In this document: positions 17,003 through 42,074 of the stretch, one piece after another | How positions within the stretch are numbered: the first letter of the stretch is position 1 | Layout of the letters: each line of letters begins with the position of its first letter | Origin: a virus | Taxonomy: Duplodnaviria > Caudoviricetes | Length of the DNA stretch: 61,662 bases | Reading direction: 5' to 3' (one strand) | Virus record (IMG/VR): IMGVR_UViG_3300042343_000382 | Location: 1 to 61,662 of that record | The notes under the pieces: generated by a model | Told to the model about the DNA's origin: nothing | What the model saw: the letters and a program-made list of their open reading frames with translations, nothing else | Databases searched by the model: none | Position numbers and translations under genes: made by a program

Positions 17003-17493
17003 TATTTAAAAAATAAGTCCGACTCTGTCTTTCTCCTTCTAACTAAACCATTCAGCCTTACTCCGTTTGCTGTTATATACTTTGTCTCGAACCACTTCCT
17101 TATCTGCTCCTCTGGAGCTTTCTTATTTATCAACTTAAAAAGTGTGTCAGATCCTCCAGTGTTGTACGTATGGCTTACTAGGGAATCGTACTGATTCTGT
17201 GTTAGCAATATTTTTATCTTAGATGAAACTATCCTTTCAAAGACTCTTAAGTCTTCAATAAGCGCCTGATCAGCCTCTTGTTTATTATTTATTGTAATGC
17301 TAGCGTAAGCCTCTTTTTTATCTTTAGTTCCCTTTAAAAACACACCATCTTTATTTCTCATAGCCCTTCCATACCCCTCTGTCCAAACTTTAGCTGGACA
17401 CATCTTAGGTTGTAGCCCTATCGTTGACAGGTCGCCATCGTGCAGCGATTCAAACTCCTTGATAAGGTTGATACCTACTATACTGGTCCTCAT
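17002..17493 (-). CDS. Endolysin, GH24 phage lysozyme
   Basis: IKEFE...CPAKVWTEGYG, LTQNQYDSLVS..YNTG, GLVRRRKTE. Confidence 0.9.
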   Translation of the reverse strand: MRTSIVGINLIKEFESLHDGDLSTIGLQPKMCPAKVWTEGYGRAMRNKDGVFLKGTKDKKEAYASITINNKQEADQALIEDLRVFERIVSSKIKILLTQNQYDSLVSHTYNTGGSDTLFKLINKKAPEEQIRKWFETKYITANGVRLNGLVRRRKTESDLFFK

Positions 17494-19054: not shown

Positions 19055-19344
19055 TAGTACTTACCTCTTTTACTTTTTGGACTTGGCGTGGTGTTTCCAC
19101 CCTTGCCTCCCCATAAATCCTTACACGCCCAGTGCCTTGCTGTTAACTTACTGTCCGCAGTGTCACACTTATGCCTTGCCTTGAATGACTTACGAGCAGC
19201 GTCAGAGTAATTATTTCCGTACCCAGACGCTCCGTAGTGAATGAGTTTCTCCTGCCCGTTCTCACAAGCCTTGACCATTCTCTTCTTCCCTGCTCTGTCG
19301 CTCTTCTGAGGAGCGTTGCACTTCATCTTACTTTTTTCCGCCAT
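19054..19344 (-). CDS. Small basic protein
   Basis: K/R-rich, RKSFKARHKC...ARHWAC motif. Confidence 0.75.
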   Translation of the reverse strand: MAEKSKMKCNAPQKSDRAGKKRMVKACENGQEKLIHYGASGYGNNYSDAARKSFKARHKCDTADSKLTARHWACKDLWGGKGGNTTPSPKSKRGKY

Positions 19345-19606
19345 TCCCTCTTGCTCTTTTGTCTCCAGGCATTGCAGTTCGCGAACCGCGATTTACTGAA
19401 GCCTTCTGTAATTTTATTCCTGACTTGGTATGAGCAACGTCCTTACCATCACCGTTCCCATACGTCCCACGCTTGCGGTTCTCAGCATTGAGTTCAACAC
19501 GCTTCTTAACCTCACGGTCCTGCTTGTTGTACTCAGCCTGGTAGGCAAGTCTTTTCTTCCTTGAGTCGGGGTTATCCTTATAAAATTTGGCTGTCCTACC
19601 TGGCAT
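19328..19606 (-). CDS. Small basic protein, degenerate HNH-like
   Basis: GDGKDVAH...S.NR motif, strongly basic. Confidence 0.6.
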   Translation of the reverse strand: MPGRTAKFYKDNPDSRKKRLAYQAEYNKQDREVKKRVELNAENRKRGTYGNGDGKDVAHTKSGIKLQKASVNRGSRTAMPGDKRARGNGGKK

Positions 19607-22993: not shown

Positions 22994-23119
22994 TTAAAAT
23001 GTAAATTGAATGTGTATACACAGGATGTAGATGTTTAACTCTGAGTAGTCAAAGTCTTCGTCCTTGGCGAACCAAGATAAACCAAACATAAGATAGTTTG
23101 GTGCAATTGTAATTTCCAT
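22994..23119 (-). CDS. Small hypothetical protein (41 aa)
   Basis: MEITIAPNYLMFGLSWFAKDEDFDYSELNIYILCIHIQFTF; between a -7 box and groEL. Confidence 0.6.
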   Translation of the reverse strand: MEITIAPNYLMFGLSWFAKDEDFDYSELNIYILCIHIQFTF

Positions 23120-23146
23120 ATAAAATAAAATTAGATTATTATGATG

Positions 23147-23154
23147 CAAATATA
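23147..23154 (-). promoter_or_regulatory. Bacteroidota-type -7 box (TATATTTG), groEL operon
   Basis: TAnnTTTG upstream of ATG 23119. Confidence 0.6.
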
Positions 23155-23196
23155 TACAAAATAAGTATACGGATTTAATACTATTTAAAAATAGTC

Positions 23197-23305
23197 TTAT
23201 GTCAGAAATGACGTTTTACTTCTCCCTATTCTCTTATATATATATTTTATATATATTTTATTTTTTTTTCTGTAGAAATAGGAAAAAAATCAGAATACTA
23301 ACATA
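23197..23305 (+). repeat. Long imperfect inverted repeat, copy A
   Basis: TTATGTCAGAA...CTATTCTCTTATATATATTTT...AAAAAATCAGAATACTA.CATA matches the reverse complement of 26062..26169. Confidence 0.85.
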
Positions 23306-23702
23306 GAGGTAGTTAAAGTATTAATAATCAAGAGGTTATCTCATGACAAACTTTTTTAAAATCGTCAGGAGACGTCATTTTTAGATAAAAAACGTCGTAC
23401 GTCAATGGTAGCAAGGGATGAGGTAAAAAAAATAGGTTAGAAATGTGTGGTATTTGGGTTATATATAGGATTTGCGTGACGATTCGCTGTAGGAAAGCGA
23501 CTACAATTTCGACACGGGGGTTCCGATTTCAGAATTTTCCTACAGAATTTTCAGGTTTTTGTGGGACGGTACCTTCCTGCAGGGTGACCTACATTTTACG
23601 TCCCTATGGTTACTTCTTATGTATGGTATCTTACTATACATACTACATATATTTGTAGGGTGAACCTTACATTTATTTTGTAGGAAAGAAACTAAACTTA
23701 TC

Positions 23703-23734
23703 CGACAACAAACGGTTACAAACGACAACAAACG
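23703..23734 (+). repeat. Phased short repeats
   Basis: ACAAACG at 23708, 23718 and 23728; CGACAACAAACG twice. Confidence 0.7.
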
Positions 23735-24066
23735 TCTTACTAATTGCCACAACATAAACCCTAACTCTTAAGGTTTATCTTACAATGAAAGGTAACGATA
23801 AAGTTTATCAATTGGCTTATAGAAATAATCTATGATAGGTTTTATCTATGGTAAAAGACATTTCGATAGGCAATTACCTTCATCGCTATGCACACGCGCG
23901 CACGCAATACTATATATACAAATTACCTAAACAACATAACTAACTGATTTACAGTAAATTAAAATAGTAAGAATTAAACTTGTAGGAAAGTACTGCATTT
24001 GTAATCCTTGCGAAGCCCCGTAAACACTAGGAAAGTGAAAATAATTTAAAAAAACTTCAAAAAAAA

Positions 24067-24099
24067 TTTGGTAGTTTAATTGTTGTCGCCGTATGTTTG
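24067..24099 (+). promoter_or_regulatory. Full Bacteroidota housekeeping promoter (early promoter)
   Basis: TTTG (24067-70), 21-nt spacer, TATGTTTG (24092-99) = -33/-7 consensus. Confidence 0.8.
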
Positions 24100-24102
24100 C
24101 AA

Positions 24103-24317
24103 TGTCAAAACGAAACAACTAGTAATTTTGACAAGCAAAGTTTAATTGCTTCAACCTAAAACCGTCGGGACTACAGACGTACAAAGTAGCGGGAGTCAAT
24201 AAAGACTATAAAATTGGCTGTAGTTAGTCTGAAATAAGAGGTCAAAGTAATCCTTGAAGTTCGAAACTACGATACTACTAAGAAGGTCAACTTGTTTGGC
24301 TACATAAGTAAAAGGTC
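24103..24317 (+). ncRNA. Structured 5' leader RNA of unknown class
   Basis: No ORF; stems TGTCAAAA/TTTTGACA, AGCAA/TTGCT, CGTC/GACG, AGACTA/TAGTCT, GTAG/CTAC between promoter and ribozyme. Confidence 0.5.
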
Positions 24318-24375
24318 GTTAACCGTAGCAAAGTGAGTGCTTTGCCTGAAGAGTCGAAAACGACGAAACGGTAAC
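24318..24375 (+). ncRNA. Hammerhead ribozyme, type III
   Basis: Stem III ACCGT/ACGGT, GUA triplet (cut after 24327), stem I GCAAAG/CTTTGC, core CTGAAGA, stem II GTCG-AAAA-CGAC, GAAA. Confidence 0.93.
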
Positions 24376-24392
24376 TTTAAAACTTTATTAAA

Positions 24393-24506
24393 ATGAAACA
24401 ATTTATTAAAAGAAACGAGGGTGAAATTTATTTTACCATTACAGTAATGGCGTTCGCCATATTATTAATAGTACTAGACTTAAATAACATTATTAAAATC
24501 AACTAA
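24393..24506 (+). CDS. Small single-TM protein (37 aa), first early gene
   Basis: MKQFIKRNEGEIYFTITVMAFAILLIVLDLNNIIKIN; A-rich start, stop 1 nt before next ATG. Confidence 0.65.
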   Translation: MKQFIKRNEGEIYFTITVMAFAILLIVLDLNNIIKIN

Positions 24507-24507
24507 G

Positions 24508-25086
24508 ATGAGAAAGTTAACTAAATATCAACTACAAAAAATATCTAGAAACCTTGATAAATATTTCAATCTAGCAAGTGAAGACGATATAAAAAATGGC
24601 TTGCTTTGGTACCAACAAGCCAACGACATTTGCAAAGATATAGCGCAAAAATACGGGACGAGTACATTTATTGCTTCAGGCGTTATCAGCGCGCTTAGTC
24701 CTAGAAACAAATGGGCAAAAAATATACAGGACGCGTATACAGTTTTCGAGGCCGTACAAAATAACGTCGAAGCCGTTGACACAAAAGTGAGTACGTTTCA
24801 CACGAACAAGTTCAAAGCCTTTGCTATAGCGCAGGGCAAGGTAACGATAACGAGCGAAAGCAATAAGACCTTCGCGTTTTGTGAGAATATAGCGCACTTA
24901 AACGAGGACTTTGTAACGGTTGACGTTTGGCACCTTAGGGCTTGTTTCGACATGACAATGGGCTCAATCGGGGACTTGGCCTATAAACAACTGCAAAGCA
25001 TAACACTAAGCAAGGCTAAGAAGTTAGGTATAAGAGGCTTCGAATATCAGGCAATAATTTGGAACTCAGTTCAAAACAATTTTTAA
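24508..25086 (+). CDS. Conserved phage protein, possible HhH-GPD DNA glycosylase-like fold
   Basis: G..WY, ISALSPRNKW..N, KT..F..NI, VTVDVWH (resembles the catalytic VDxH motif). Confidence 0.55.
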   Translation: MRKLTKYQLQKISRNLDKYFNLASEDDIKNGLLWYQQANDICKDIAQKYGTSTFIASGVISALSPRNKWAKNIQDAYTVFEAVQNNVEAVDTKVSTFHTNKFKAFAIAQGKVTITSESNKTFAFCENIAHLNEDFVTVDVWHLRACFDMTMGSIGDLAYKQLQSITLSKAKKLGIRGFEYQAIIWNSVQNNF

Positions 25087-25087
25087 T

Positions 25088-25246
25088 ATGAACTACGAAA
25101 CATACGAACAAAAGTACAAGGGCACGACAAGGACTATCTTTCGTGCCTATATAGGTAAAGGCTTCATAGAAGCGCAAAGCCTCGAAAGATTAAACGAACT
25201 AATTAATAACCACGCCCCAATAAAAGAGGGTACATTTAAAGACTAA
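25088..25246 (+). CDS. Hypothetical protein (52 aa)
   Basis: MNYETYEQKYKGTTRTIFRAYIGKGF...; tight spacing. Confidence 0.6.
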   Translation: MNYETYEQKYKGTTRTIFRAYIGKGFIEAQSLERLNELINNHAPIKEGTFKD

Positions 25247-25251
25247 ACACA

Positions 25252-25437
25252 ATGGACAAATCGTATTCAATTTTTTGCATAGCAAGTCAGTTACTAGAGG
25301 GTAACGAGAGAGAACTAGACGTAGTTTGGGAAACGGCAACCAAACTATATGACGAATTTTTAGAGAGTGAGTTCAACGATTATAATCAATCGGAACTAGA
25401 CTGCATTAATGAATTTTTAACAACTAAAAACAAATGA
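25252..25437 (+). CDS. Acidic hypothetical protein
   Basis: 61 aa, ATGA overlap. Confidence 0.7.
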   Translation: MDKSYSIFCIASQLLEGNERELDVVWETATKLYDEFLESEFNDYNQSELDCINEFLTTKNK

Positions 25438-25775
25438 AAACATTACAGATTAACATCGGACTAAACAACAACACAATGACTGCAGAACAAGTCGTAGACT
25501 ATATCGCAAGCAATAAAGAGTATCGACTTATGGCTTATCAGATAGTTGATGCAGAGTTTAACGGAAACGTCGAGCCTACCTTTGTAGGACTTATGGAGTA
25601 CAACTATTCAAGGCAGTCAAAGATACTGCAGGACTTCGAGAATATAGCCTCAGTCATGACTCAAGAAAGCATAGCTATTAAAACAGACAAAATGCAGGTC
25701 TTAGCATTCAATCCTAGTTACAATGGTGACGGGTACCAATTCGACGAACAATACTTTAAAAGCATTAAACTATGA
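25434..25775 (+). CDS. Hypothetical protein
   Basis: 113 aa, coupled overlaps. Confidence 0.75.
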   Translation: MKTLQINIGLNNNTMTAEQVVDYIASNKEYRLMAYQIVDAEFNGNVEPTFVGLMEYNYSRQSKILQDFENIASVMTQESIAIKTDKMQVLAFNPSYNGDGYQFDEQYFKSIKL

Positions 25776-25969
25776 ACATAAACATAAACATACTAGAGGT
25801 AGCCTCAGAGCTAGCGCATAAGAAAATAGAAGAGCACTTCGAGTTTGAGGCCAAGAAAATATATGAGTGGGTTTCAGATGAAGAGAGCAGGTACACGGAA
25901 GAGGCGCAAGAATTATTCAACGAGTGGTACGACTACTACTACGATTTTTTACTTAAACTTAAAGAATAG
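25772..25969 (+). CDS. Acidic hypothetical protein
   Basis: 65 aa, YTEEAQELFNEWYDYY. Confidence 0.7.
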   Translation: MNININILEVASELAHKKIEEHFEFEAKKIYEWVSDEESRYTEEAQELFNEWYDYYYDFLLKLKE

Positions 25970-26061
25970 TAAAGTTATGCTAGAAAATCTAGCATGGAAT
26001 GACGCGAGAAAATAAAATCGTCATAGCCTTGAGGTCAATGGAATCAAGACTTAACGTTTTA

Positions 26062-26169
26062 TATGCTAGTATTCTGATTTTTTCTTTACTTTCTAGGTAA
26101 AAAAAATAAATAAATAAATAAAAATATATATAAGAGAATAGAGAGAATAAAATCGACATTCTGACATAA
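26062..26169 (-). repeat. Long imperfect inverted repeat, copy B
   Basis: Reverse complement aligns with 23197..23305. Confidence 0.85.
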
Positions 26170-26220
26170 CAATTTAAACTAATTACAAACGATAAACTAT
26201 CGTTTAAAAAAAGAAAAACA

Positions 26221-26385
26221 ATGATAACAATAAACAACAAAACTTGGACGGAGCAGGAACTTATTCAATTAATAGATGACGCTCAACTTATCGCAGAATT
26301 TATTCGTATGGACTTAAGTACAATAGAAGACAACGAAGACGTAATGGCTTTAGAAACCTATACTAACTTTTCAAACAAATACTAA
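26221..26385 (+). CDS. Hypothetical protein (54 aa)
   Basis: MITINNKTWTEQELIQLIDDAQ...; stop 1 nt before next ATG. Confidence 0.6.
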   Translation: MITINNKTWTEQELIQLIDDAQLIAEFIRMDLSTIEDNEDVMALETYTNFSNKY

Positions 26386-26386
26386 T

Positions 26387-26650
26387 ATGCAAGTAATTAT
26401 AACACGAGGAAGCTACGGCTTCGGTCACGAGTGGACGCTAGAGGCGTACGGAAAGCAATACTACCTAGGGCAGGACGTAAAGTTCTGTTCAAGGGTGTTA
26501 GGTCTTGAACCTAGCACTATTGTCTCAGAGATAGGCAGTCCCGAAATAGAGGTGCCTGCAGTGAACAATCGCCTAGCGAAGTTCATATGTAATGAACTAG
26601 GCATAACAAGAAAAACAAATATTAACGCGTGGGACTTATGCGCCCAGTAA
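26387..26650 (+). CDS. Hypothetical protein
   Basis: 87 aa, YLGQDVKFCSRVLG. Confidence 0.75.
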   Translation: MQVIITRGSYGFGHEWTLEAYGKQYYLGQDVKFCSRVLGLEPSTIVSEIGSPEIEVPAVNNRLAKFICNELGITRKTNINAWDLCAQ

Positions 26651-27024
26651 TACTAAACACAATGGAAGAAAATAAATTAATACTAGAGTTTTTAAACACG
26701 GACGTAAACAATGACGGGACGTATGAGTTACCAAAGTTTGGTACTATAAGACCTAACGGGGACTTCAAGACGAGTTTCACTGCAGAGCAAACTAAGTTTC
26801 ACAAGGATTGGAACTGGATTATGGAAGCGGTTGATAAGATTGAGAGTATAGGAGACGAAGAAAATAATGGTGAGTACTTCTTCGAGATATATAAGTTTGG
26901 TGTTACAATATTTAGCAACGGGGTATATGTTAATGAAATAGTAAACACTTCAGGCAAAACAAAACTAGAGGCTACCTACAAGGCAATAGTAGAATTTATT
27001 AATTATTATAACGCAATAAAATGA
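26629..27024 (+). CDS. Hypothetical protein (likely start at MEENKL)
   Basis: FHKDWNWIMEAVDKIE...KLEATYKAIVEFI pattern. Confidence 0.75.
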   Translation: MGLMRPVILNTMEENKLILEFLNTDVNNDGTYELPKFGTIRPNGDFKTSFTAEQTKFHKDWNWIMEAVDKIESIGDEENNGEYFFEIYKFGVTIFSNGVYVNEIVNTSGKTKLEATYKAIVEFINYYNAIK

Positions 27025-27200
27025 AACAACGAGTTTGGGAGCTATGGTTCCTAGTATCAGTAATAGTATTCGGTGCCTTCTTCTTCGTGGGCACCATAGA
27101 GGGGAGCCAAGAGGCCTTCCCTAACTTATTTTGGGGATTCGTCCCTGCATTGTTTAACCTAGCCGTGTGTTCATACTACGGCACAAAACCAACCAAGTAA
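27021..27200 (+). CDS. Small two-TM membrane protein (59 aa)
   Basis: MKQRVWELWFLVSVIVFGAFFFVG...; ATGA and TAATG overlaps. Confidence 0.65.
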   Translation: MKQRVWELWFLVSVIVFGAFFFVGTIEGSQEAFPNLFWGFVPALFNLAVCSYYGTKPTK

Positions 27201-27712
27201 TGGAAAATTTTAGAGTAACGAGAGAACAGATTTTGAAGTACAATATGCAGGACGAGTTTCCTGAGGTGTTTAAACTAGAGACGCACAGGTGGTACATAGT
27301 GAGCCACCCGTATTATATTCAGGACGCAATTATCTTTATTCAGGAGGAAGGTATGCCTCACACTTTTGGATTCAATCACGAGGGTGATTGGACTGAAATT
27401 TACAATAACGAACACCTGCATAGCAAGTATCGTAAAGACATCGTAAGACCTGCGACTAACGAAGAGGTAAAGAACGCGCTTATTGACGAGGCTACAAGAC
27501 GTGGCGTGTGGGACAGACCTATGGTCTCTGCGGTTAGTGGAAACATAAACACAGACGGTTCATACTCCGAGGCATTTGAGGCTGTTAACAACGTCCTATG
27601 GTCAAGATACGGCAGGGTGTTCGACAATGGTGAGTGGGCGACTGCGCTAGAACTTACAACTGAGGAGAGGTTAGAGAGAATCGAAAAGCATTTAGGACTA
27701 TGGAGACAGTAG
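27200..27712 (+). CDS. Hypothetical protein
   Basis: Start taken at the TAATG overlap (MENFRV...) within track ORF 27167..27712. Confidence 0.75.
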   Translation: MENFRVTREQILKYNMQDEFPEVFKLETHRWYIVSHPYYIQDAIIFIQEEGMPHTFGFNHEGDWTEIYNNEHLHSKYRKDIVRPATNEEVKNALIDEATRRGVWDRPMVSAVSGNINTDGSYSEAFEAVNNVLWSRYGRVFDNGEWATALELTTEERLERIEKHLGLWRQ

Positions 27713-27849
27713 AGAGACAGGTAAGAGACATCTTCGCGAAGAGGAGCATAACCGACAGGGACGTAAGAAAAGCCAACGAACTTATAAGGGTGTGGAAGTA
27801 TTGGCACAAGTGGAAGGAAGCCACGAGTAACCCTATTAAAGCCTACTAG
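27700..27849 (+). CDS. Hypothetical protein (49 aa)
   Basis: METVERQVRDIFAKRSITDRDVRKANELIRVWKYWHKWK... Confidence 0.6.
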   Translation: METVERQVRDIFAKRSITDRDVRKANELIRVWKYWHKWKEATSNPIKAY

Positions 27850-27850
27850 T

Positions 27851-28075
27851 ATGAGTGTGATATTAAGAAGGCACGAGGCTCAAACAAACGACAACTACAT
27901 AGCGCTCAGGAACGCAGACAATGTTTTTATTATGCCAAAGTTCAGTCACGTTATGATGGACAACAGGCTCGTAGAGGTAAACATACCTGAGAGTTACTAC
28001 AAGATAAACAGAGAGGCTATAGATTCTATGGCAAGGAACACGCAGGCGTTCATACAAAACTTAAGAGAGATATGA
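27851..28075 (+). CDS. Hypothetical protein
   Basis: 74 aa, operon spacing. Confidence 0.7.
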   Translation: MSVILRRHEAQTNDNYIALRNADNVFIMPKFSHVMMDNRLVEVNIPESYYKINREAIDSMARNTQAFIQNLREI

Positions 28076-28221
28076 AGAACAAGAAAGCAGAGAAGGAGAT
28101 GCACCGCTTCGATAAGTGGATGCGCACAAGGGTAAAGAGTATACACTACGCAGACAACAAGCGTATGTCAGAGGCGTTCGAGAGGGTGTACAATAATATA
28201 AACGGTACCACCATAAAGTAA
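28072..28221 (+). CDS. Hypothetical protein (49 aa)
   Basis: MKNKKAEKEMHRFDKWMRTRVK...; ATGA overlap. Confidence 0.6.
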   Translation: MKNKKAEKEMHRFDKWMRTRVKSIHYADNKRMSEAFERVYNNINGTTIK

Positions 28222-28340
28222 TCCTTGTAAACGCTACAATGTAGGCCGAGGTGATGGTCGTGTCGCTGTGTGTGGGTGGTGCCAATGTTTTCATGACACA
28301 CACAAATCACCTTATGCGTGACTGCTCGGAGAGACGGGCT
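28204..28340 (+). ncRNA. Candidate pseudoknotted structured RNA
   Basis: Pairings AGGTGAT/ATCACCT, TGTGTGTG/CACACACA, GGTACCACC/GGTGGTGCC and terminal GCTCG-GAGAGA-CGGGC. Confidence 0.55.
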
Positions 28341-28369
28341 TAATTATTAACTTTAAAAAACAAAATAAA

Positions 28370-28771
28370 ATGGGAAGCGTAATTGACTATATAGAATGTC
28401 CTAACTGCAAACAAGAAGCATTTAGTGATTACTATTACAAAACAGATGAAGAATATATTAACTGCAATAGTTGTGGTTATCATTACTCTTTTATTATCAA
28501 AAGAGATGACGAGGGTAAAATGATAAAAATAGATGAGAGTAAGGACTTTGCTATTGATAATGTAGTAAGAGAAACAAATGAACTTAAAGAACCTTACGGT
28601 GCATATAGAATTAAACACTATGATTCCTTGGCAACACAATGTGGTTCATTATCTAACAAGTCAGAGTTTAATGATTTAGTTCATCACGTCATAGACAATG
28701 ATAAAAATATTGAATACGCATCGGTATCAAAACTTATAAACGAAAACATAATAACAGAAACATTAAAATAA
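28370..28771 (+). CDS. Zinc-ribbon protein
   Basis: CPNC...CNSCGY. Confidence 0.75.
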   Translation: MGSVIDYIECPNCKQEAFSDYYYKTDEEYINCNSCGYHYSFIIKRDDEGKMIKIDESKDFAIDNVVRETNELKEPYGAYRIKHYDSLATQCGSLSNKSEFNDLVHHVIDNDKNIEYASVSKLINENIITETLK

Positions 28772-28772
28772 A

Positions 28773-29153
28773 ATGGAACAAGTATTTAAACAGGCTAGCA
28801 GGGATGGTATATCGACAAGGCTAACGACTCCAGTATCGGAGTCATACATCTACAAGGGTGTAAAGATAATAAAGGATGAGGACGGGATCCGCGTGCTGAA
28901 CACAAAGTTTAACGGGGACTACTACCAAGAGGTGACGGATGAGGAGTACGTGATATTCGAGAAGAACGGATGGAGAACTGGGTGCTACCTAGTAGCCACG
29001 AGTAATAACCGCAAGGCTCTGAACATAATCTCTGAGAAGATACAGGAGGAGATTAAGACAATGAAGAACCTGAAGAGGTACCATATGCTGGTGAGGTACA
29101 GGGACGTTGTCATACACAGGTTCGTAACAACCTTAGAACTATTGAGACAATGA
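28773..29153 (+). CDS. Hypothetical protein
   Basis: 126 aa. Confidence 0.75.
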   Translation: MEQVFKQASRDGISTRLTTPVSESYIYKGVKIIKDEDGIRVLNTKFNGDYYQEVTDEEYVIFEKNGWRTGCYLVATSNNRKALNIISEKIQEEIKTMKNLKRYHMLVRYRDVVIHRFVTTLELLRQ

Positions 29154-29419
29154 GAAAAGAAGACATTAAAATATTTATCGACGGCATAGAGAACCCTGCT
29201 GAACCGAACCAAGCGCTTAAGGATGCTGCTGAAAGATATATAGCAGGAGATAATTATAACAGGTACTATGATGATTTTATTGAAGGTGCTAAATGGCAAT
29301 CAGAAAGAAGTTATAGTGAGGAAGAAGTGATAGAATTTGGAGAGTTTATATTTAAACATACTCTATTAGCACATTCCAAAGGAGTTAAAAATTTATTTGA
29401 ACAATTTAAAAACAAATAA
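29150..29419 (+). CDS. Hypothetical protein, YSEEEV family copy 1
   Basis: FIEGAKWQSERSYSEEEV...FEQFKNK. Confidence 0.75.
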   Translation: MRKEDIKIFIDGIENPAEPNQALKDAAERYIAGDNYNRYYDDFIEGAKWQSERSYSEEEVIEFGEFIFKHTLLAHSKGVKNLFEQFKNK

Positions 29420-29420
29420 G

Positions 29421-29660
29421 ATGACAGCAAAAGAACTAATTTTATCTATGGGATGGGACTACGAGAACACAGAGATGTCTGCTAGGTTTGTGGCAGAGCA
29501 CGCAGTAAAGACTATGTATAGTGAGGAAGAAGTTATTGAACTATTACAAAAAGCACTCACACATAAAGATGATGGGGAAACAGGTAGTTTAGTTACAGCA
29601 CAAGGGGAAATAAGAACAGCTAACTTTTTTAGTTGGTTTAACAAATTTAAAAACAAATAA
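29421..29660 (+). CDS. Hypothetical protein, YSEEEV family copy 2
   Basis: MTAKELI...MYSEEEV...FNKFKNK; start taken at 29421. Confidence 0.75.
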   Translation: MTAKELILSMGWDYENTEMSARFVAEHAVKTMYSEEEVIELLQKALTHKDDGETGSLVTAQGEIRTANFFSWFNKFKNK

Positions 29661-29661
29661 T

Positions 29662-29862
29662 ATGGAGACAAATAAGTCTGGACTTGAGTACCTGATCAGT
29701 GAGATACTGCACGAGCAAGAAACTTACCTTGACGACGAAGGAGATCTGACCGACACTCCACGTGTTCAGTATATGAATAGCTTCAAGTCACACGTCGACC
29801 TGACAAAGTATGTTGAGAAGGCTAGGGAGATTGATAAAAAAAATAACAAAAAATTAGTATAA
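29662..29862 (+). CDS. Hypothetical protein
   Basis: 66 aa. Confidence 0.7.
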   Translation: METNKSGLEYLISEILHEQETYLDDEGDLTDTPRVQYMNSFKSHVDLTKYVEKAREIDKKNNKKLV

Positions 29863-29889
29863 TTAAATAATAATTAATATATTCGCAGA

Positions 29890-30468
29890 ATGGAAAATGT
29901 ATTTAAAAAGTTGTCAGAGATAAATATCTCAGATAAAATCGAGAAGAAAGGTAACCAAGATTACCTAAGTTGGTCAAACGCGTGGGCTATTGTTAAGTCA
30001 ATATACCCAGACGTAAAGAGAACAGTGTATGAGGACTATCATACAGGAGTAAACTACTTCAACGATGGTCGCTCAGCCTACGTGAAGGTTGGTATTACAA
30101 TTAACGATCAGGAGTACATCGACTACTTGCCAGTGATGAGTTATAACAACAAGTCTATACCTTTAGAGCAAGTAACCTCTATGGATGTGAACAAGACAAT
30201 TCAGAGAGCCACAGTTAAAGCATTGGCGTATCATGGATTAGGATTGAAACTTTGGAGTGGAGAAGATCTAATTGACTCAGTAAAGACAGCCAAAACTACA
30301 TCCACAAAGATCGATCTGGCTGTGAATGATACGAACTGGGCAGGTGTTGTTAACTACATTACAGCCAATAAAACAAAGCTTGACTTAGCTACTATAGTTA
30401 AGAACCTTAGTGTAAAGTATAATTTGAGCACCGCAGTTAAGAAGGCGCTCGGTGATTTAATGAAATAA
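29890..30468 (+). CDS. Sak/Rad52-like single-strand annealing protein
   Basis: IEKKGNQDYLSWSNAW...LPVMSYNNK...DVNKTIQRATVKALAYHGLGL.LW.GED; next to exonuclease. Confidence 0.85.
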   Translation: MENVFKKLSEINISDKIEKKGNQDYLSWSNAWAIVKSIYPDVKRTVYEDYHTGVNYFNDGRSAYVKVGITINDQEYIDYLPVMSYNNKSIPLEQVTSMDVNKTIQRATVKALAYHGLGLKLWSGEDLIDSVKTAKTTSTKIDLAVNDTNWAGVVNYITANKTKLDLATIVKNLSVKYNLSTAVKKALGDLMK

Positions 30469-30469
30469 T

Positions 30470-31201
30470 ATGAGCAAAGTAATAGAACAACTAAGAAATG
30501 ACGCTGACTACTATGGCGACTACGGTTCTAAATACCTGTCTAACAGTTCAGTAGGAGTTCTGCTGTCAAACCCAAAACTATTTGGAGTTAAACAACCTCC
30601 TACAGTTCCAATGCTTAGAGGAAGTTATTTTCATACAGCTATATTAGAGCCACACAAGTTAGATAGCTTTGAAATTGTTGAGGCATCAACAAGGTCAACA
30701 AATATATACAAGGACGCTGTATCACACTCATCATCAGAAATTTTGTTGTTAAAAAATGAGGTAGAAGATTTAGAGGAAATGATAAAAACAATAAAATCTA
30801 ATTTTTATTTTTATGAAAATATATACAGAGAGGGTAATATATTTGAAGAACCAGCAGTCGGAGAAATTTTTGGATTGCCTTTTAAAGGTAAGGCAGATAT
30901 AGTGAGTGAAGATATTCTTATAGATATAAAAACAACATCAAGCGTTAGAGATTTTCGTTACTCAGCTAAGAAATATAACTACGATAGTCAATGTTATATA
31001 TACAGTCAACTATTTGGAAAGCCATTAGTGTTTTATGTTATAGACAGCGCGACTAAAGAATTAGCTGTATACGAGCCTAGTGAAGACTTTATATTAGGTG
31101 GTCGTGACAAGGTGATGAGAGCCATCGAGGTGTACAAGAAGTTCTTTAGCAAGGACGCGACTGAGGATATTAACAACTACTTTATACAGGATACATTATG
31201 A
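30470..31201 (+). CDS. PD-(D/E)XK exonuclease (RecE/exonuclease VIII-like)
   Basis: LSNS, GSYFHTAILEP, KGKADIV...DIKTT, YNYDSQCYIY. Confidence 0.85.
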   Translation: MSKVIEQLRNDADYYGDYGSKYLSNSSVGVLLSNPKLFGVKQPPTVPMLRGSYFHTAILEPHKLDSFEIVEASTRSTNIYKDAVSHSSSEILLLKNEVEDLEEMIKTIKSNFYFYENIYREGNIFEEPAVGEIFGLPFKGKADIVSEDILIDIKTTSSVRDFRYSAKKYNYDSQCYIYSQLFGKPLVFYVIDSATKELAVYEPSEDFILGGRDKVMRAIEVYKKFFSKDATEDINNYFIQDTL

Positions 31202-31461
31202 GTTCTGAGCAGATAGTTAAGGAGTTGGTTGATAAGTTTAACGAGACCTCTGCAAATAATAAGAAATTTTATTTTACATTTGTGCAGAAGGAGGAGTATA
31301 TGAACATAGAGTTCGGCATCTCTGAGGAGAACTGCTTCGTATTCAAGGAGTACATAAAGAAGAACGCGGACGCAGACGCACTTAGGGAGAAGTTATTCAC
31401 GAGGTTTATAAACGACGTGTTTACTAGGATGTTTGATCTGATAAAGAGGAATAAATTTTAA
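31198..31461 (+). CDS. Hypothetical protein
   Basis: 87 aa. Confidence 0.7.
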   Translation: MSSEQIVKELVDKFNETSANNKKFYFTFVQKEEYMNIEFGISEENCFVFKEYIKKNADADALREKLFTRFINDVFTRMFDLIKRNKF

Positions 31462-31469
31462 AATAAAAG

Positions 31470-31568
31470 TGTAGTGTGGCGGAATGGTAAACGCTAAGCG
31501 TAGTAAGGTAAGCTGACAGACGACGTAAAACAACTTGCCGTGCAGGTTCGAATCCTGCCACTACACCA
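31470..31568 (+). ncRNA. tRNA-like RNA 1 (no canonical anticodon arm)
   Basis: Acceptor TGTAGTG/CACTACA, D-arm TGGCGGAATGGTAAACGC, T-arm GCAGG-TTCGAAT-CCTGC, 3' ...ACCA; middle is a linker plus GGTAAGCTG/CAACTTGCC hairpin. Confidence 0.75.
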
Positions 31569-31642
31569 AAAAAATCGTCTTGGTAAAACAAGTTAAGTGA
31601 TGCACGTAAGTCATAGCAGGTTAAGCGATATCCTGCAAATTG

Positions 31643-32002
31643 GGGGGTGACTGGTTTTGACAGGTTACCAATAATTAATACAATCAGCCAGAGAGACAAC
31701 TGTAAACTAAGGTGAATTTTTTAAATGGCAATACAAACACTCGTGTAGTATCTCTAGGAGACAACGCACAAATTGAAGCTAACATGAACAAAGTATTCTC
31801 TTTATTGAGAGAAGAAGTTGGTGTAGCAGCCTAAACATTCAAAGGATTTCTCTGTTAGATTAAACAGAGTGGTGGTTTCGCTGACTTAATTGTCGGCCCT
31901 AGAGTGCGCCTGTAGACTCTTTAAATAAGTATAGGGACAAAAGCTGTATAAATTGTATTAATGAACGTAGTTTGGACGTGGGTTCGACTCCCACCACCTC
32001 CA
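31643..32002 (+). ncRNA. ssrA: tmRNA
   Basis: 5' GGGGGTGACTGGTTTTGACAG, 3' GGACGTGGGTTCGACTCCCACCACCTCCA, G3:U70 and A discriminator, 11-bp helix ATTAATACAAT/ATTGTATTAAT, internal frame ending ...VAA*. Confidence 0.93.
31727..31834 (+). other. tmRNA tag reading frame (35 aa)
   Basis: After TTAAAT: GNTNTRVVSLGDNAQIEANMNKVFSLLREEVGVAA*; resume codon inferred from analogy to the Bacteroidota GGC resume context. Confidence 0.7.
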
Positions 32003-32127
32003 CTAATGCAGTTCAATTCTGCTCGGTTACTGAGAATTGGTATCTAAATGAGGCTCGAAACCTCCTCGTATGTCGAGATTAGTAGCGCTAGGTGGCGTCA
32101 GTATGACAGCTTGGAAAGACAAGCAAA
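32003..32127 (+). ncRNA. Candidate multi-hairpin RNA between tmRNA and tRNA-like RNA 2
   Basis: GCAG-TTCAATT-CTGC, CTCGG/CTGAG, GAGG-CTCGAAA-CCTC, CTCG/CGAG, GCTTG-GAAAGA-CAAGC. Confidence 0.5.
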
Positions 32128-32234
32128 AGTCAAGTGGTGTAAGTGGGAATGAATACCACCTAGGGATAACATAGTGACTGAGATAGCATCTCTTAATTTG
32201 TCACTGGATGAAGGTTCGAATCCTTTCTTGACTA
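32128..32234 (+). ncRNA. tRNA-like RNA 2 (no canonical anticodon arm)
   Basis: Acceptor AGTCAAG/CTTGACT + A, D-like TGGTGT/ATACCA, T-arm GAAGG-TTCGAAT-CCTTT; middle is a linker plus AGTGAC/GTCACT stem enclosing GAGAT/ATCTC. Confidence 0.7.
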
Positions 32235-32259
32235 CTATTAATATTTAAATTTAATTACA

Positions 32260-32523
32260 ATGGAAAAAATTTTTGCAGATGGTTTCGTATTCAAGAGAAA
32301 CGAAAAGGCACCAGACTTCGTGGTGGGAAACATCAGTGTTAAGGTTGAGGAGGCTGTAGCCTTCTTGAAGCAACACACTAAGAACGGATGGGTTAACCTA
32401 CAGGTTAAGAACTCTCAAGGTGGTAAGTACTACATCGAGTTGGACACGTTCGAGCCTAAGGCACAACAGCAGGCTCCTGCTCAACAGCCAGAGCCAGTGA
32501 ATGATGGTACGCTACCATTCTAA
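32260..32523 (+). CDS. Putative single-stranded DNA-binding protein
   Basis: Small beta-rich core, Q/P linker, tail ending DGTLPF; near Sak and exonuclease. Confidence 0.65.
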   Translation: MEKIFADGFVFKRNEKAPDFVVGNISVKVEEAVAFLKQHTKNGWVNLQVKNSQGGKYYIELDTFEPKAQQQAPAQQPEPVNDGTLPF

Positions 32524-32530
32524 ATTAACC

Positions 32531-32555
32531 AAGCCCCTTTCACTAGGGGCTTTTT
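32531..32555 (+). terminator. Rho-independent terminator
   Basis: AAGCCCC-tttcacta-GGGGCTT followed by TTT. Confidence 0.85.
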
Positions 32556-32569
32556 AAACCTTTATTATT

Positions 32570-32785
32570 ATGACACTAAAAGAAAAGTTTGAAACAAAAT
32601 CTTCAATAGACACTACAAAAGAAGCTAAAGTATTTGCAAAAGAATGCGAACTAATAGCAGATGAATTTGCTATTGGATTTGCAGAGTGGTTTTTAAATTT
32701 ATCTAAATCAGATGATTGGGAAAAATTTGATTATAATACCACAGAAAAACTATTAGAAATTTATAAAAAAGAAAATAAGTTATGA
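32570..32785 (+). CDS. Hypothetical protein, FAI.FA.W family copy 1
   Basis: EFAIGFAEWF...KLLEIYKKE. Confidence 0.75.
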   Translation: MTLKEKFETKSSIDTTKEAKVFAKECELIADEFAIGFAEWFLNLSKSDDWEKFDYNTTEKLLEIYKKENKL

Positions 32786-33036
32786 GAGCACAGGACTTTT
32801 TAGATGGAGCATTAAAGGATTTAAAATTTAGAGTTTCATTTCCTGGAGAGTTAGTTACTACACAGGAAAATGTAAATAACTTTGCTATTAGATTTGCATC
32901 GTGGTGTGTTAAAAAAAGAATAGACTTCTTTGATAGCACAGAAATTGGAGAGACGTATACTATTGACGGCAATGTCAGTAAATATAAAATGAATGAACTA
33001 CTAGAAATCTATAAACAAGAAATAGAGAAACTATGA
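32782..33036 (+). CDS. Hypothetical protein, FAI.FA.W family copy 2
   Basis: NFAIRFASWC...ELLEIYKQE. Confidence 0.75.
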   Translation: MRAQDFLDGALKDLKFRVSFPGELVTTQENVNNFAIRFASWCVKKRIDFFDSTEIGETYTIDGNVSKYKMNELLEIYKQEIEKL

Positions 33037-33374
33037 ACAAAAATAAAATGAAGGCAATATCGGAGGCTTACGATAGGATTCGAGCGATAGAGAACGACAT
33101 ACGGATCATACAGGCTACAGCCGAGAAGGTGCTTGACAAGAACACCGTCTCCTGGCTGTCACTAGACTTTGAGGACGACCTCCTTAATAGTATGCAGACG
33201 CAGACCTGGACTACTCAAACTACAACAGGATCGTTCTTTATGTCTAGTGAGGTGAAGCCTGAGGAGGACAACGGATTTAGTATGGACATACCCGACACGG
33301 TTACCCTTGAAATTCTTGGGGTTATATTAAGATACAAACAACAACTTATTCAAAATGAAAATAACAATATTTAA
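33033..33374 (+). CDS. Hypothetical protein
   Basis: 113 aa. Confidence 0.7.
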   Translation: MNKNKMKAISEAYDRIRAIENDIRIIQATAEKVLDKNTVSWLSLDFEDDLLNSMQTQTWTTQTTTGSFFMSSEVKPEEDNGFSMDIPDTVTLEILGVILRYKQQLIQNENNNI

Positions 33375-35757
33375 GGACATCCGAAGCACCTCAACACCGT
33401 TCTATAGACACATAGACGTGGTGCTTGAGAGGATAAGAACAGGCTCAAGCAGGGAGCTTATCGAGAGCATACAGCAGGAGCAGGACAAGTCAACCCGTAA
33501 CGAGTTGAAGAAGTCACTCCCAGCGATATGCTTCTCGGGTATATTCACCAAGCGTGCCGATAACTCAATAACTGAGCACAGCGGACTGATCTGTCTAGAC
33601 TTTGATGGATATGCCAGTAAGAAGGAGATGATGGCTGAGAAGCGCTCTATTGCGTCAGACGAGTATGTTATGTCTGTCTTCGTGTCTCCGTCTGGGGATG
33701 GACTGAAGGTTCTTGTTAAGATACCACAGGACATAGACAACCACGTGAGGTACTTCAACGCGCTTGAGAGGCACTTCAACTCACAATACTTCGACACCAC
33801 GTCCAAGAACATATCGAGGGTGTGCTACGAGTCGTACGACGAGGAGGTATACATCAACAAGGAGTCTAAGGTCTGGGAGCAGATGCACGAGGACGAGTTC
33901 GTTGAGATCCAGAAGGCATCGAGCGCACCAACTATTCCGATTACCAACGAGAACAAGATCGTCGACATACTCATAAAGTGGTGGACATCTAAGTACGGTA
34001 TGGTGGACGGTGAGCGTAACCACAACGTGTACATACTGGCTGCAGCCTTCAACGACTACGGGATAAACAAGTCGCTGGCTGAGTACATAATAGGTCAGTT
34101 CGAGCAGACCGACTTCCCTATGTCTGAGATTAAGATGACCATAAACTCAGCCTACAGCCACACCAATAAGTTTGGCACGAAGTACTACGAGGACACGGCA
34201 CGTGTGTCTCAGCTTAAGAAGAAGGTGAAGGACGGGGCGACAGCCAAGCAGATTAAGTCTGAGATGACTGACATTGAGGAGGGTGTCATCGACGCGGTCT
34301 TGGATAAGATTGATAGCGACACAAAGCGTTTCTGGACCAAGAATGACAAGGGTGCTGTGAGCATTATTCACTTCCTATTCAAGGAGTTCTTGGAGGATAA
34401 CGGGTTCTATAAGTTCTACCCTGAGAACACCAAGACGTTTGTCTTTGTAAAGGTCACAAACAACCTGATAGACAACACGTCGGAGGATGAGATCAAGGAC
34501 TTCGTTCTTGCGTACCTTGAGAATATGGACGACCTGTCGGTGTACAACTACTTCGCGGACAAGACTAGGTTCTTTAAGGAGGACTTCCTGTCACTGCTTG
34601 GTTCGGTGGACGTATACTTCGTGGAGGACACGGCAGACACGGCTCACCTGTACTACAACAACTGCGCGGTCAAGGTGACCAAGGATAAGGTGGACATAAT
34701 AGACTACATAGACCTTGAGGGTTACATATGGATGGACCAGGTGATAGACAGAGACTTCGCGATATGTGAGGTCACCGAGTGCGACTTCAAGACCTTCGTC
34801 TCCAACATAGCGGGTGATGACTCCCAGAGGGTTAGCTCGATGGAGAGCACGATAGGGTTCCTGATGCACGGCTACAAGAACCCGTCATACTGCCCAGCGA
34901 TCATCCTGAACGATGAGGTTATATCTGATAATCCTGAGGGTGGTACGGGTAAGGGGCTGTTTGTCAACGCGTTGTCTAAGATCAAGAAGACGGTCACCAT
35001 AGATGGTAAGTCGTTTAACTTTGACAAGTCGTTCGCCTATCAGACAGTCAACGTAGGTACACAGGTGCTGTGTTTTGATGACGTTAAGAAGCACTTCGAC
35101 TTCGAGCGTCTGTTCAGCGTTGTTACTGAGGGGCTTACGGTTGAGAAGAAGAACAAGGACGCGATCAAGCTGCCTTTCAACCGCTCACCTAAGATTATGA
35201 TCACCACTAACTACGCCATCAAGGGCAAGGGGAACTCGTTCGAGAGGCGGAAGTGGGAGCTAGAGTTCAGGCAGTTCTACAGCAAGGAGTTCACACCATT
35301 CGTTGAGTTTGGACGTATGCTGTTCAACGACTGGGACGAGGAGGAGTGGTGCAAGTTCGACAACTATATGATAAATAATTTGAAGTCATATCTAGATACT
35401 GGACTAATAAAGAGTACATTTGTAAACCTTAAGGTTCGTAAGTTGTCGGCAGAGACCTGTCACGAGTTCATCGACTGGTGTGGTATGATAGACGGTAACT
35501 CTCACAACGACAAGATGCGATTGGATGAGCTGTTATATAAACAAGACCTTTACCTGGACTTCATTATGGACAACCCAGACTTTGCACCAAAGGCTAAGAT
35601 GACCATCAGTAGGACTCTGTTTTACAAGTGGTTAGTATCTTACGGACTGTATGTGACTGGCGTTACTCCACTTGAGGGTAGGGATGCCAACGGCAGGTGG
35701 ATTAAGTTCATCACTAAGGATGGAGACACGCATAACACTGAAGAGTTTAAGTTTTGA
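33355..35757 (+). CDS. Primase-helicase (VirE-N/BT4734-like domain, primase C-terminal domain, SF3-type helicase)
   Basis: K..LP.I.FSG.F, SGLICLDFD, FVSPSGDGLK; GERNH; Walker A GGTGKG, Walker B LCFDD, ITTN. Confidence 0.85.
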   Translation: MKITIFKDIRSTSTPFYRHIDVVLERIRTGSSRELIESIQQEQDKSTRNELKKSLPAICFSGIFTKRADNSITEHSGLICLDFDGYASKKEMMAEKRSIASDEYVMSVFVSPSGDGLKVLVKIPQDIDNHVRYFNALERHFNSQYFDTTSKNISRVCYESYDEEVYINKESKVWEQMHEDEFVEIQKASSAPTIPITNENKIVDILIKWWTSKYGMVDGERNHNVYILAAAFNDYGINKSLAEYIIGQFEQTDFPMSEIKMTINSAYSHTNKFGTKYYEDTARVSQLKKKVKDGATAKQIKSEMTDIEEGVIDAVLDKIDSDTKRFWTKNDKGAVSIIHFLFKEFLEDNGFYKFYPENTKTFVFVKVTNNLIDNTSEDEIKDFVLAYLENMDDLSVYNYFADKTRFFKEDFLSLLGSVDVYFVEDTADTAHLYYNNCAVKVTKDKVDIIDYIDLEGYIWMDQVIDRDFAICEVTECDFKTFVSNIAGDDSQRVSSMESTIGFLMHGYKNPSYCPAIILNDEVISDNPEGGTGKGLFVNALSKIKKTVTIDGKSFNFDKSFAYQTVNVGTQVLCFDDVKKHFDFERLFSVVTEGLTVEKKNKDAIKLPFNRSPKIMITTNYAIKGKGNSFERRKWELEFRQFYSKEFTPFVEFGRMLFNDWDEEEWCKFDNYMINNLKSYLDTGLIKSTFVNLKVRKLSAETCHEFIDWCGMIDGNSHNDKMRLDELLYKQDLYLDFIMDNPDFAPKAKMTISRTLFYKWLVSYGLYVTGVTPLEGRDANGRWIKFITKDGDTHNTEEFKF

Positions 35758-36020
35758 TAGATCCAGATGACTTCAGGTGGGCGATACAGAATGACTGGCA
35801 GGTGTACGTCAAGCCCTACGGAGGTGGGGCGTACATAGCCGTCAGGAAGGGAGGCATAACCGCGTGTGGTAAGGACTACCACTACGACAGGGAGACAGGA
35901 TTGGAGTACTACTCCAAAGAAAATTTAGGTAAGGTGTATTATAAAAAAATAGAGATGGCGATGGATGTATTGCCAAAGGTATATAAATTTTTAAGATATG
36001 GAACAGATAATAATAGATAA
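35754..36020 (+). CDS. Hypothetical protein
   Basis: 88 aa, TTGA overlap with primase stop. Confidence 0.65.
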   Translation: MIDPDDFRWAIQNDWQVYVKPYGGGAYIAVRKGGITACGKDYHYDRETGLEYYSKENLGKVYYKKIEMAMDVLPKVYKFLRYGTDNNR

Positions 36021-36270
36021 CAAACACGAGTACGATTACAAGTTAGATAACACAAGACACGAGTTGCACTTCTCGGATAATGATGAGTGGACACGTCCAG
36101 GTGATGTAGGGTTGGAGATATTTGATGACGGAGACGGATTAGACGTGCGAACAGATGATGGTTCATTAGTCTACCTAGACTACCACACAGCAGAGATGTT
36201 GCTTGTGTTACTAAAGTTAGTGAACAGAAAAATAACTTACGAGGTAGTAACTAAAAAAGAGAGGCTATGA
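35998..36270 (+). CDS. Hypothetical protein
   Basis: 90 aa. Confidence 0.7.
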   Translation: MEQIIIDNKHEYDYKLDNTRHELHFSDNDEWTRPGDVGLEIFDDGDGLDVRTDDGSLVYLDYHTAEMLLVLLKLVNRKITYEVVTKKERL

Positions 36271-36425
36271 AAATAATAATTGAAGATAAATTCGAGATAT
36301 ACTCTACCGAGTTTACTAATATGGATGTGTCTATGGAGCAGATTGTAAATTCTTTCAAGGGAATGCTTATGAATTACGGGTTTCATATAGACACTATTAA
36401 CGAATATTTTAAGACAGATGACTAA
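36267..36425 (+). CDS. Hypothetical protein (52 aa)
   Basis: MKIIIEDKFEIYSTEF...FKGMLMNYGFH; ATGA overlap. Confidence 0.6.
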   Translation: MKIIIEDKFEIYSTEFTNMDVSMEQIVNSFKGMLMNYGFHIDTINEYFKTDD

Positions 36426-36693
36426 TTTAAAGAACATCCGTCAGATGACACTGCCGTTATTAGTAGAAGACAAGGCGAATCATTTAATTTATGGAATAGC
36501 TATATATATGCTTTCCTATATTTTTTTAGATAGGTTCTATGCTATGATTCCAGTTATAATTATAGGTGCCCTAAAGGAAGTTTTTGATCACTATTCAGAA
36601 AAAAACAACGCGGATATTTTTGATTTTATCTGGACTGTTGTTGGTGGGTTAATATGTGAGTTAATAATAATAATAAATTTAAATAAGCTATGA
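36418..36693 (+). CDS. Small membrane protein (VanZ-like pattern)
   Basis: DKANHLIYG...KEVFD...DIFDFIWTVVGG, three hydrophobic segments. Confidence 0.7.
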   Translation: MTNLKNIRQMTLPLLVEDKANHLIYGIAIYMLSYIFLDRFYAMIPVIIIGALKEVFDHYSEKNNADIFDFIWTVVGGLICELIIIINLNKL

Positions 36694-37217: not shown

Positions 37218-37307
37218 GATTGTATATTATATTATACAAAAACACTGAAAAGTGTATAAAATGTATACTATATTGTACGAATAAATGTAACTTAAACGAT
37301 TAAACTT

Positions 37308-40429: not shown

Positions 40430-40440
40430 TAACTTTTTAC

Positions 40441-40460
40441 GTCATAAATTAATTTATGAC
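40441..40460. promoter_or_regulatory. Perfect 20-bp palindrome, possible operator
   Basis: GTCATAAATTAATTTATGAC is its own reverse complement; intergenic. Confidence 0.45.
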
Positions 40461-40486
40461 ATAAATTGCAATAAAAAACACACAAA

Positions 40487-41943: not shown

Positions 41944-41972
41944 TTTGGCATAATTCTTGATATAATAAATAT

Positions 41973-42066: not shown

Positions 42067-42074
42067 TTTTAATT

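Follow-up and report, generated by a model that had tools for sequence, protein, structure and literature searches.

The window analysed here comprises an entire virus record (61,662 bp; completeness rating 100%). Among named relatives the closest are podophages of Flavobacterium, genus Elemovirus (68 of 68 matching records, about 71% identity over short stretches). The genes form three blocks, one running leftward from 22990, one rightward from 24393 to 42803, and one leftward from 61335 to 43205. Small ORFs open the rightward block, which further on includes (at 33355-35757) a primase/helicase-like gene, and the Elemovirus annotation has the same arrangement, with small ORFs followed by recombination and replication genes. 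From these features the rightward block appears to be early. Elsewhere in the window there is a tmRNA gene (31643-32005, plus strand; Rfam 97.7 bits) with an ARAGORN tag peptide ending in VAA. Just upstream of it lies a tRNA-like gene (31470-31566, plus strand; 39.4 bits) with 37 nt in the anticodon region compared with 17 expected, which ARAGORN did not call in the window. Two minus-strand ORFs are 2126 and 1746 aa long.

At the head of the rightward block, with the upstream genes on the opposite strand, lies a hammerhead ribozyme motif (24318-24375, plus strand). It ends 17 nt before the ATG at 24393, which is the gap given in an earlier note on this DNA. The first ORF (24393-24506, plus strand) encodes 37 aa with a hydrophobic C-terminal half. 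The second (24508-25086, plus strand) encodes a 192-aa protein (phrog_3842), which served as the marker for retrieving relatives. Between the ribozyme and the ATG is an A/U-rich junction with the translation-start region (24376-24392, plus strand, …TTTAAAACTTTATTAAA), and after cleavage positions 24373-24395 of the 5' UTR are predicted to be unpaired. In the phage group the A/U-rich junction TTTAAAACTTTATTAAAATG occurs again ahead of several early ORFs, including the intercistronic gaps of L084 and L086, and it lies where the genomes diverge in their leaders and cassettes. It may serve as a linker for recombination in addition to being a site of translation start. A 110-nt inverted repeat with a long A/T-rich core (23207-23316 and 26051-26160; 74% complementary, about 85% identity after gapped alignment) encloses the promoter, the ribozyme, and the first early ORFs. 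Both of its arms match in L006-L009.

A candidate Bacteroidota-type promoter is found at 24067-24099 (plus strand), with TTTG at 24067-24070, a spacer, and the TAnnTTTG box TATGTTTG at 24092-24099. The distance from the end of the box (24099) to 24319 is 219 nt. The box occurs at the same place in L006, L007, and L008, and variants of it occur in L009 and Elemovirus. In the genome as a whole the pattern TTTG-N15-23-TAnnTTTG has 5 matches compared with 4.06 expected, which is no enrichment. Because this count is not above chance, the support for the promoter comes from its conserved position in relatives. The distance of about 220 nt to the promoter that the earlier note gave is confirmed. A sigma-70 promoter scan is ill-suited to Bacteroidota. 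With only 5 chance-level matches in 61.7 kb, most genes of the window may be transcribed by other means than promoters of the Bacteroidota pattern. Transcription of the rightward block probably starts near 24104, and no terminator-like sites were found on the plus strand between the promoter and the ribozyme.

Structure of the hammerhead motif

The sequence at 24318-24375 reads as a complete type III hammerhead. The 5' strand of stem III (24318-24326) ends in U16.1 (24326) and is overlapped by the cleavage triplet GUA (24325-24327), in which A24327 is H17, a position that is not G. The stem I hairpin follows (24328-24345; GCAAAG at 24328-24333, loop UGAGUG, CUUUGC at 24340-24345), then the core segment C3-A9, CUGAAGA (24346-24352), and the stem II hairpin GUCG-AAAA-CGAC (24353-24364) with the closing pair G10.1-C11.1. 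GAAA (24365-24368) provides G12, A13, and A14, followed by A15.1 at 24368. The 3' strand of stem III runs to 24375, and A24368 pairs with U24326. Stem I has 6-7 bp, stem II has 4 bp, and stem III has 5 bp, or 8 bp with a bulge. Stems I and II are closed by loops and stem III is open with the 5' and 3' ends, which is the type III topology, and a finder for all topologies detected only type III in the window. The core and the helix register place the predicted cut between A24327 (H17) and G24328 (N1.1), and the earlier note had arrived at the same site.

A published rule for accepting hammerheads allows no mispair at N1.1-N2.1, N10.1-N11.1, and 15.1-16.1 (PMC3088659). The window motif conforms to the rule as worded there: the core is consensus and the core-flanking pairs (G24328-C24345, G24353-C24364, and U24326-A24368) are all matched. 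The MFE fold of 24318-24375 is a three-way hammerhead junction (-16.1 kcal/mol, z -2.66), and 3 of 200 shuffles are equally stable. The hammerhead fold is retained in the MFE and centroid structures of the full 24104-24395 RNA.

A descriptor made of CUGANGA, GAAA, a UH cleavage site, and three helices was run on both strands of the 61,662 bp and matched exactly once. In 300 dinucleotide-preserving shuffles the relaxed motif has a frequency of 0.01 per genome, and none of them contains a motif whose stems have at least 6/4/4 bp. A finder for the three topologies gave 1 match in shuffled related loci (590 kb, three shuffles). The full core and three stems reported in the earlier note are thus borne out by the sequence, the MFE fold, and the unique descriptor match.

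The same note had proposed a cmscan comparison with the Rfam hammerhead models, and here neither cut-off was reached. The window scores 16.8 bits with RF00008 (Hammerhead_3; gathering score 48.5, E 0.028) and 16.2 bits with RF00163 (Hammerhead_1; 34, E-value mode). At gathering thresholds only the tmRNA and the tRNA are called in the window. The motif shares with RF00008 its topology (stem III open) and catalytic core, while stem and loop lengths and sequences differ. Routine annotation misses the window copy because these lengths and sequences depart from what the RF00008 model expects. By the Rfam threshold the motif is a non-member and by the structural rules of the literature it is a hammerhead.

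Covariation and distribution in related phages

Five syntenic copies were aligned: those of the window, L084 (=L006), L086 (=L008), L001 (Elemovirus), and L083. In this alignment 95.3% of cells are paired and 10 of the 17 pairs have changes on both sides, values reached by none of 500 shuffles. When partners were slid by 1-3 columns as a control, at most 3 both-side-changed pairs were obtained. The alignment was fitted to the model and is biased towards structure; a plain MAFFT alignment of the window with Elemovirus has the same compensatory changes. All seven pairs of stem I vary, six of them on both sides, and every cell of the stem is paired (100%). Stem-loop I of the window is 33% identical to that of Elemovirus with all pairs retained. 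The fourth pair of stem II covaries (G-C, C-G, or A-U), and the U-A pair (15.1-16.1) is kept in five of five copies. Only the plus strand is fitted, because G-U pairs are present in stems I and III. This agrees with the orientation given in the earlier note, a plus-strand hammerhead at the head of the block, on the coding strand and before the first ORF.

A set of nine sequences, which includes copies from unrelated phage contigs, has both-side changes in 11 of the 17 pairs, partly by construction since five of the nine were chosen by a filter that demands pairing. The core letters C, U, G, A, G, and A are invariant in all nine aligned copies and N7 is the only variable position. The cleavage triplets of the relatives are GUA or GUC. 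Although stem I varies fully, the U, G, and G of loop 1 and two A of loop 2, letters that were not selected for, are also the same in all nine. They would fit a loop-loop tertiary contact of the kind that gives fast cleavage at cellular Mg2+, as far as it can be judged from an alignment. Selection for a cleavage-competent structure is indicated because the core is intact and compensatory changes restore the helices in copies that share 69-75% identity. The window motif is very probably a real, selected hammerhead.

In Elemovirus the hammerhead is found at the homologous place in four of four loci, with stem I UAAGGAU/AUCCUUA and stem II GUCA/UGAC, and likewise in L005 and L081. The copy in the metagenome contig L083 has stem I UAUAGGU/ACCUAUA, core CUGACGA, and stem II GUCG/CGAC. 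The uncultured L006/L084 and L008/L086, which were fetched with the 192-aa protein, carry a fourth and a fifth version. Each syntenic copy is preceded by a Bacteroidota-type promoter and a leader of 115-220 nt, and the first ORF of the plus-strand block follows it.

The presence of the ribozyme is patchy. Relatives of the 192-aa protein (52-96% identity) were retrieved from 32 loci with flanks of +/-10 kb, and at least 2 kb of upstream flank was available in 28. The ribozyme model R1 matched in 2 of the 32 loci, i.e. 2 of the 28, and a general finder detected no further copy upstream of the 192-aa gene in the same loci. The hammerhead as a fixture of all phages with the 192-aa gene was rejected on this count. 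In the close relative L007/L085 (about 79% identity over 23000-24135) the leader is different and the ribozyme is absent. Another close relative, L009/L087, also has a different leader, and all that is left of its hammerhead is the 3' half, behind an inserted ORF (weak R1 match, 12.8 bits). This remnant (L009 2616-2640, = L087 ~9616-9640) comprises loop 2, the stem II 3' strand, GAAA, and the stem III 3' strand, and represents a hammerhead that has decayed in place at this junction. The phage group can do without the ribozyme, which is a module rather than a fixture.

Several relatives have additional hammerheads. In L086 the type III copy is followed by a 76-aa ORF and then by a canonical type I hammerhead (9817-9868, plus strand), which ends 18 nt before the homologue of the 37-aa ORF of the window (9886-9999). 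In elemoA (MT497017) a second hammerhead, also canonical type I, lies inside the early block (~17290-17347, minus strand of the record); phanotate_43, annotated opposite it, is probably spurious. In L111 a hammerhead of canonical type I (10302-10359, plus strand) is located downstream of the 192-aa gene.

Thirteen phage type III copies were collected (L050 and L074 are identical), and 11 of them end 7-23 nt before an ATG-initiated ORF; one of the two exceptions is cut by the contig end. Of 14 contexts, 8 are divergent junctions at which a gene block begins and 5 are gaps between same-strand ORFs; the remaining one is unclear. Head-of-block copies are followed by a first ORF of 37, 58, 76, 71, or 59 aa. 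The ribozyme therefore goes with the position and not with a particular gene, since the first ORF differs between phages. The architecture of promoter, leader, hammerhead, 7-23 nt, and ATG recurs with different leaders and different first ORFs.

The presumed leader RNA

The presumed 5' leader (24104-24327, plus strand) would be about 224 nt long with a start at ~24104 and is predicted to end in a 2',3'-cyclic phosphate at A24327. Its plus strand contains no ATG, no GTG, and no ORF of at least 30 aa, and a coding function was rejected for this reason. The leader core ("leader A", 24160-24318, plus strand) is a candidate structured RNA with copies in L001 (~1510-1653) and L083 (315-460, minus strand). 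Between the window and Elemovirus the core is 80.1% identical (113 of 141 aligned positions) and the ribozyme 69.2%. Between Elemovirus and L083 the values are 95.1% and 81.1%. The window core is likewise identical to that of L083 at 113 of 141 aligned positions. The promoter-proximal part (24104-24159) is 50% identical between the window and Elemovirus and 44.6% identical between Elemovirus and L083. A DNA alignment of the window with elemoA covers 3,844 of 61,662 nt in 15 segments, one of which is the non-coding 24149-24399. In the Elemovirus record MT497017 a small opposite-strand PHANOTATE ORF overlaps the conserved leader (19215-19355), and leader and ribozyme are unannotated.

For the leader core, RNAalifold predicted 37 nested pairs from three sequences, with 96.4% paired and 4 compensatory; 2 of 500 shuffles were as good, for a structure derived from the same three sequences on which it was scored. 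When the diverged leader of L065 is added the consensus fold changes, and only the first three hairpins persist. The folding energy of the single leader sequence is ordinary (z -0.08, 84 of 200 shuffles as stable), and an unusually stable fold is unsupported. Rfam searches in E-value mode of 24000-24600, five related loci, and the whole window found no ribozyme or riboswitch family for any leader. An exact-pattern scan for leader A found one stretch in viral contigs (the Elemovirus record) and one in metagenome contigs (L083).

The leaders fall into three types. Type A occurs in the window, Elemovirus, and L083, and in a diverged form in L065; L006 and L008 have type B, and L007 and L009 have type C. 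Leader B is unrelated to A. Its two copies differ at 2 positions and their ribozymes at 8 of 57, and the viral-contig scan for leader B found only the L006 and L008 contigs. L007 (~2530-2615) and L009 (~2185-2250) have a common leader hairpin element that is compensatory in 7 of 22 predicted pairs and has no Rfam match, and each has a long hairpin directly before the conserved junction. The structured leader RNAs are a lead that is suggested by these comparisons and not a result. In the earlier note the leader was a by-product of cleavage. Its release is still predicted from the sequence, but with a core that is more conserved than the ribozyme the leader may also be a functional product.

Proposed function and alternatives

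In the proposed mechanism, host RNA polymerase would start at the Bacteroidota-type promoter near 24100 and transcribe the ~220-nt leader followed by the ribozyme. The ribozyme would fold during synthesis and cut itself between A24327 and G24328, as the complete core and the covariation suggest. Hammerhead cleavage leaves an upstream product with a 2',3'-cyclic phosphate and a downstream product with a 5'-OH. By this chemistry the leader (~224 nt) would be detached with a cyclic phosphate at its end, and the remaining mRNA would have its 5'-OH at G24328, with the first nucleotide already paired in the 7-bp stem I hairpin. In the cleaved mRNA the stem I hairpin would come first, then stem II, and then 20 nt of unpaired A/U-rich sequence up to the ATG at 24393.

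Cleavage would most likely benefit the phage by defining a 5' UTR that is independent of whichever leader lies upstream, similar to the action of the engineered insulator RiboJ. It is also likely that a 5'-OH with a terminal hairpin offers a poor entry for RNases that depend on the 5' end. In E. coli and Bacillus, 5'-OH and structured 5' ends are poor RNase substrates. The type I copy of L086 is predicted to leave a short unstructured 5' end; because of this a structured 5' end cannot be the shared benefit, and the common denominator is the cut. The whole chain, a working type III hammerhead on the early/replication transcript with this benefit, has a probability of roughly 0.6. For the purpose of the ribozyme taken separately the chances are evenly balanced. 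The interpretation of the earlier note is supported as far as the sequence goes. Against the whole chain stand the promoter motif count at chance level, the Rfam scores far under the cut-offs, and the dispensability of the ribozyme, which is absent from the close relative L007/L085 and present only as a 3' half in L009/L087.

The main alternative emphasis is that the leader is the product that matters and that the hammerhead, in place of a terminator, makes its 3' end and releases a discrete structured non-coding RNA (leader A in the window, other leaders in the relatives) whose promoter is also that of the early mRNA. It overlaps with the main explanation. The leader core is more conserved than the ribozyme in both comparisons, in genomes that otherwise align over very little of their length. 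It also lacks start codons, and its consensus fold has compensatory pairs that few shuffles equal. Leader B is nearly constant in L006 and L008 next to ribozymes that differ more, and the fourth, diverged leader of L065 retains the first hairpins. On the other hand, the structure was derived from 3-4 distinct sequences and shifts once L065 is included, the folding energy is ordinary, and no Rfam family matches. The conservation could also reflect a DNA-level site or a recent exchange of modules. This reading is possible but rather unlikely. Equally tentative is its extension, in which early promoters drive a two-part transcript of an exchangeable structured leader RNA and an early mRNA, and the hammerhead frees the leader as the very first product of infection.

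The patchy occurrence also raises the possibility that the hammerhead is a passenger at a module boundary, which travels with early-gene cassettes and has no specific benefit for the phage. Only 2 of the 28 relatives with sufficient upstream flank carry it, L009 has a truncated remnant, it is joined to different leaders and different first ORFs, and the junction TTTAAAACTTTATTAAAATG recurs at cassette borders. Single genes are flanked by hammerheads in L086, elemoA has a second copy within its early block, and the same flanking pattern is described for prophages (PMC3088659). A passenger is improbable, however, given the intact core, the compensatory repair of helices across copies that are 69-75% identical, and the constant distance of 7-23 nt to a downstream start codon, seen in 11 of 13 copies. 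Regulated cleavage is an idea that has been raised for phage hammerheads (PMC3088659). In the window the leader would bind a factor, or would fold together or in competition with the ribozyme, and the cut would adjust the early-gene dosage to a signal. GUCGUU at 24315-24320 could pair with the stem II 3' strand AACGAC (24359-24364), and in Elemovirus likewise with one wobble. The hammerhead fold nevertheless wins in the full-length MFE and centroid structures, the competing hexamer is missing in L006 and L008, and Rfam detected no riboswitch family, which makes regulation of this kind very improbable. A chance match, or an element that acts as DNA and not as a ribozyme, is hardly credible. The Rfam scores of the motif are below the thresholds, but none of 300 shuffles has an equal motif, and the syntenic copies have 10 covarying pairs and strand-specific G-U pairs.

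The reading of the window motif as a working hammerhead on an early transcript has parallels in other systems. Phage and prophage DNA is known to contain thousands of hammerheads. In the haloviruses HF1/HF2 the hammerhead HHphage precedes the first ORF of an early polycistronic transcript by 13 nt, and mapping placed the 5' end of that transcript no more than 3 nt from the site of the cut (PMC3088659). As in HF1/HF2, the window hammerhead is shortly before a start codon (17 nt compared with 13), precedes the first ORF, and belongs to a tailed dsDNA virus. The HF1/HF2 hammerhead is described in that source as a structural variant that needs high salt, in an archaeal virus, whereas the window has a standard core, ordinary stems, a Bacteroidota-type phage, and a long conserved leader. 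A 2011 study described hammerheads of phages and prophages that often flank genes (Perreault et al. 2011, PMC3088659). Like these intergenic copies, for which processing of long transcripts has been proposed (PMC3088659, PMC6765202), the hammerheads of the window's relatives can flank genes, as in L086 and with the second copy of elemoA. The window has a single copy before the first cistron, and it would remove a non-coding leader instead of acting between genes.

The synthetic element RiboJ, which is derived from a satellite-RNA hammerhead and carries an extra 3' hairpin, is another parallel. In the 5' UTR of E. coli transcripts it raises transcript levels about 2-fold and protein 2-10-fold (PMC6206723). 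In both cases a self-cleaving ribozyme lies between a promoter-proximal leader and the translation start, and the 5' UTR is, or in the window would be, freed from upstream sequence. Unlike RiboJ, the window has no 3' hairpin (24373-24395 is predicted to be unpaired), and the part removed is a conserved 220-nt RNA. Self-cleaving ribozymes in the 5' UTRs of RNA viruses enable translation (PMC13725137). They too lie immediately upstream of a viral ORF, and cleavage is tied there to the expression of that ORF. The viruses in that source are eukaryotic RNA viruses with cap-independent translation. Their mechanism is not transferable to a phage mRNA.

A search of titles and the beginnings of abstracts found no literature linking hammerheads with Flavobacterium phages or Elemovirus; the supplementary lists of PMC3088659 may include the subclass. 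Phage hammerheads, including one heading an early transcript, are already known, and the window adds another example behind an unusually conserved leader. It also reveals that the Rfam thresholds miss this subclass of phage hammerheads, and it flags a leader RNA conserved above the ribozyme. If the two-part transcript is real, the leaders would form a new family of RNAs with a regulatory or anti-host role early in phage infection, and the ribozyme would be a natural maker of 3' ends without a terminator.

According to a 2019 review, the purpose of bacterial and phage hammerheads still needs work (PMC6765202). The present locus could help settle it for phages, with a single ribozyme in a defined position, preceded by promoter and leader and followed after 17 nt by the first early ORF. 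The same module is found in cultured relatives, the Elemovirus phages on Flavobacterium sp. BAL314, and there are natural "controls": close relatives that lack the ribozyme, one that retains a remnant, and one in which the same gene is preceded by a type I hammerhead. Because the site is defined and both cultured carriers and natural variants exist, the benefit of cleavage for the phage is testable by point mutants.
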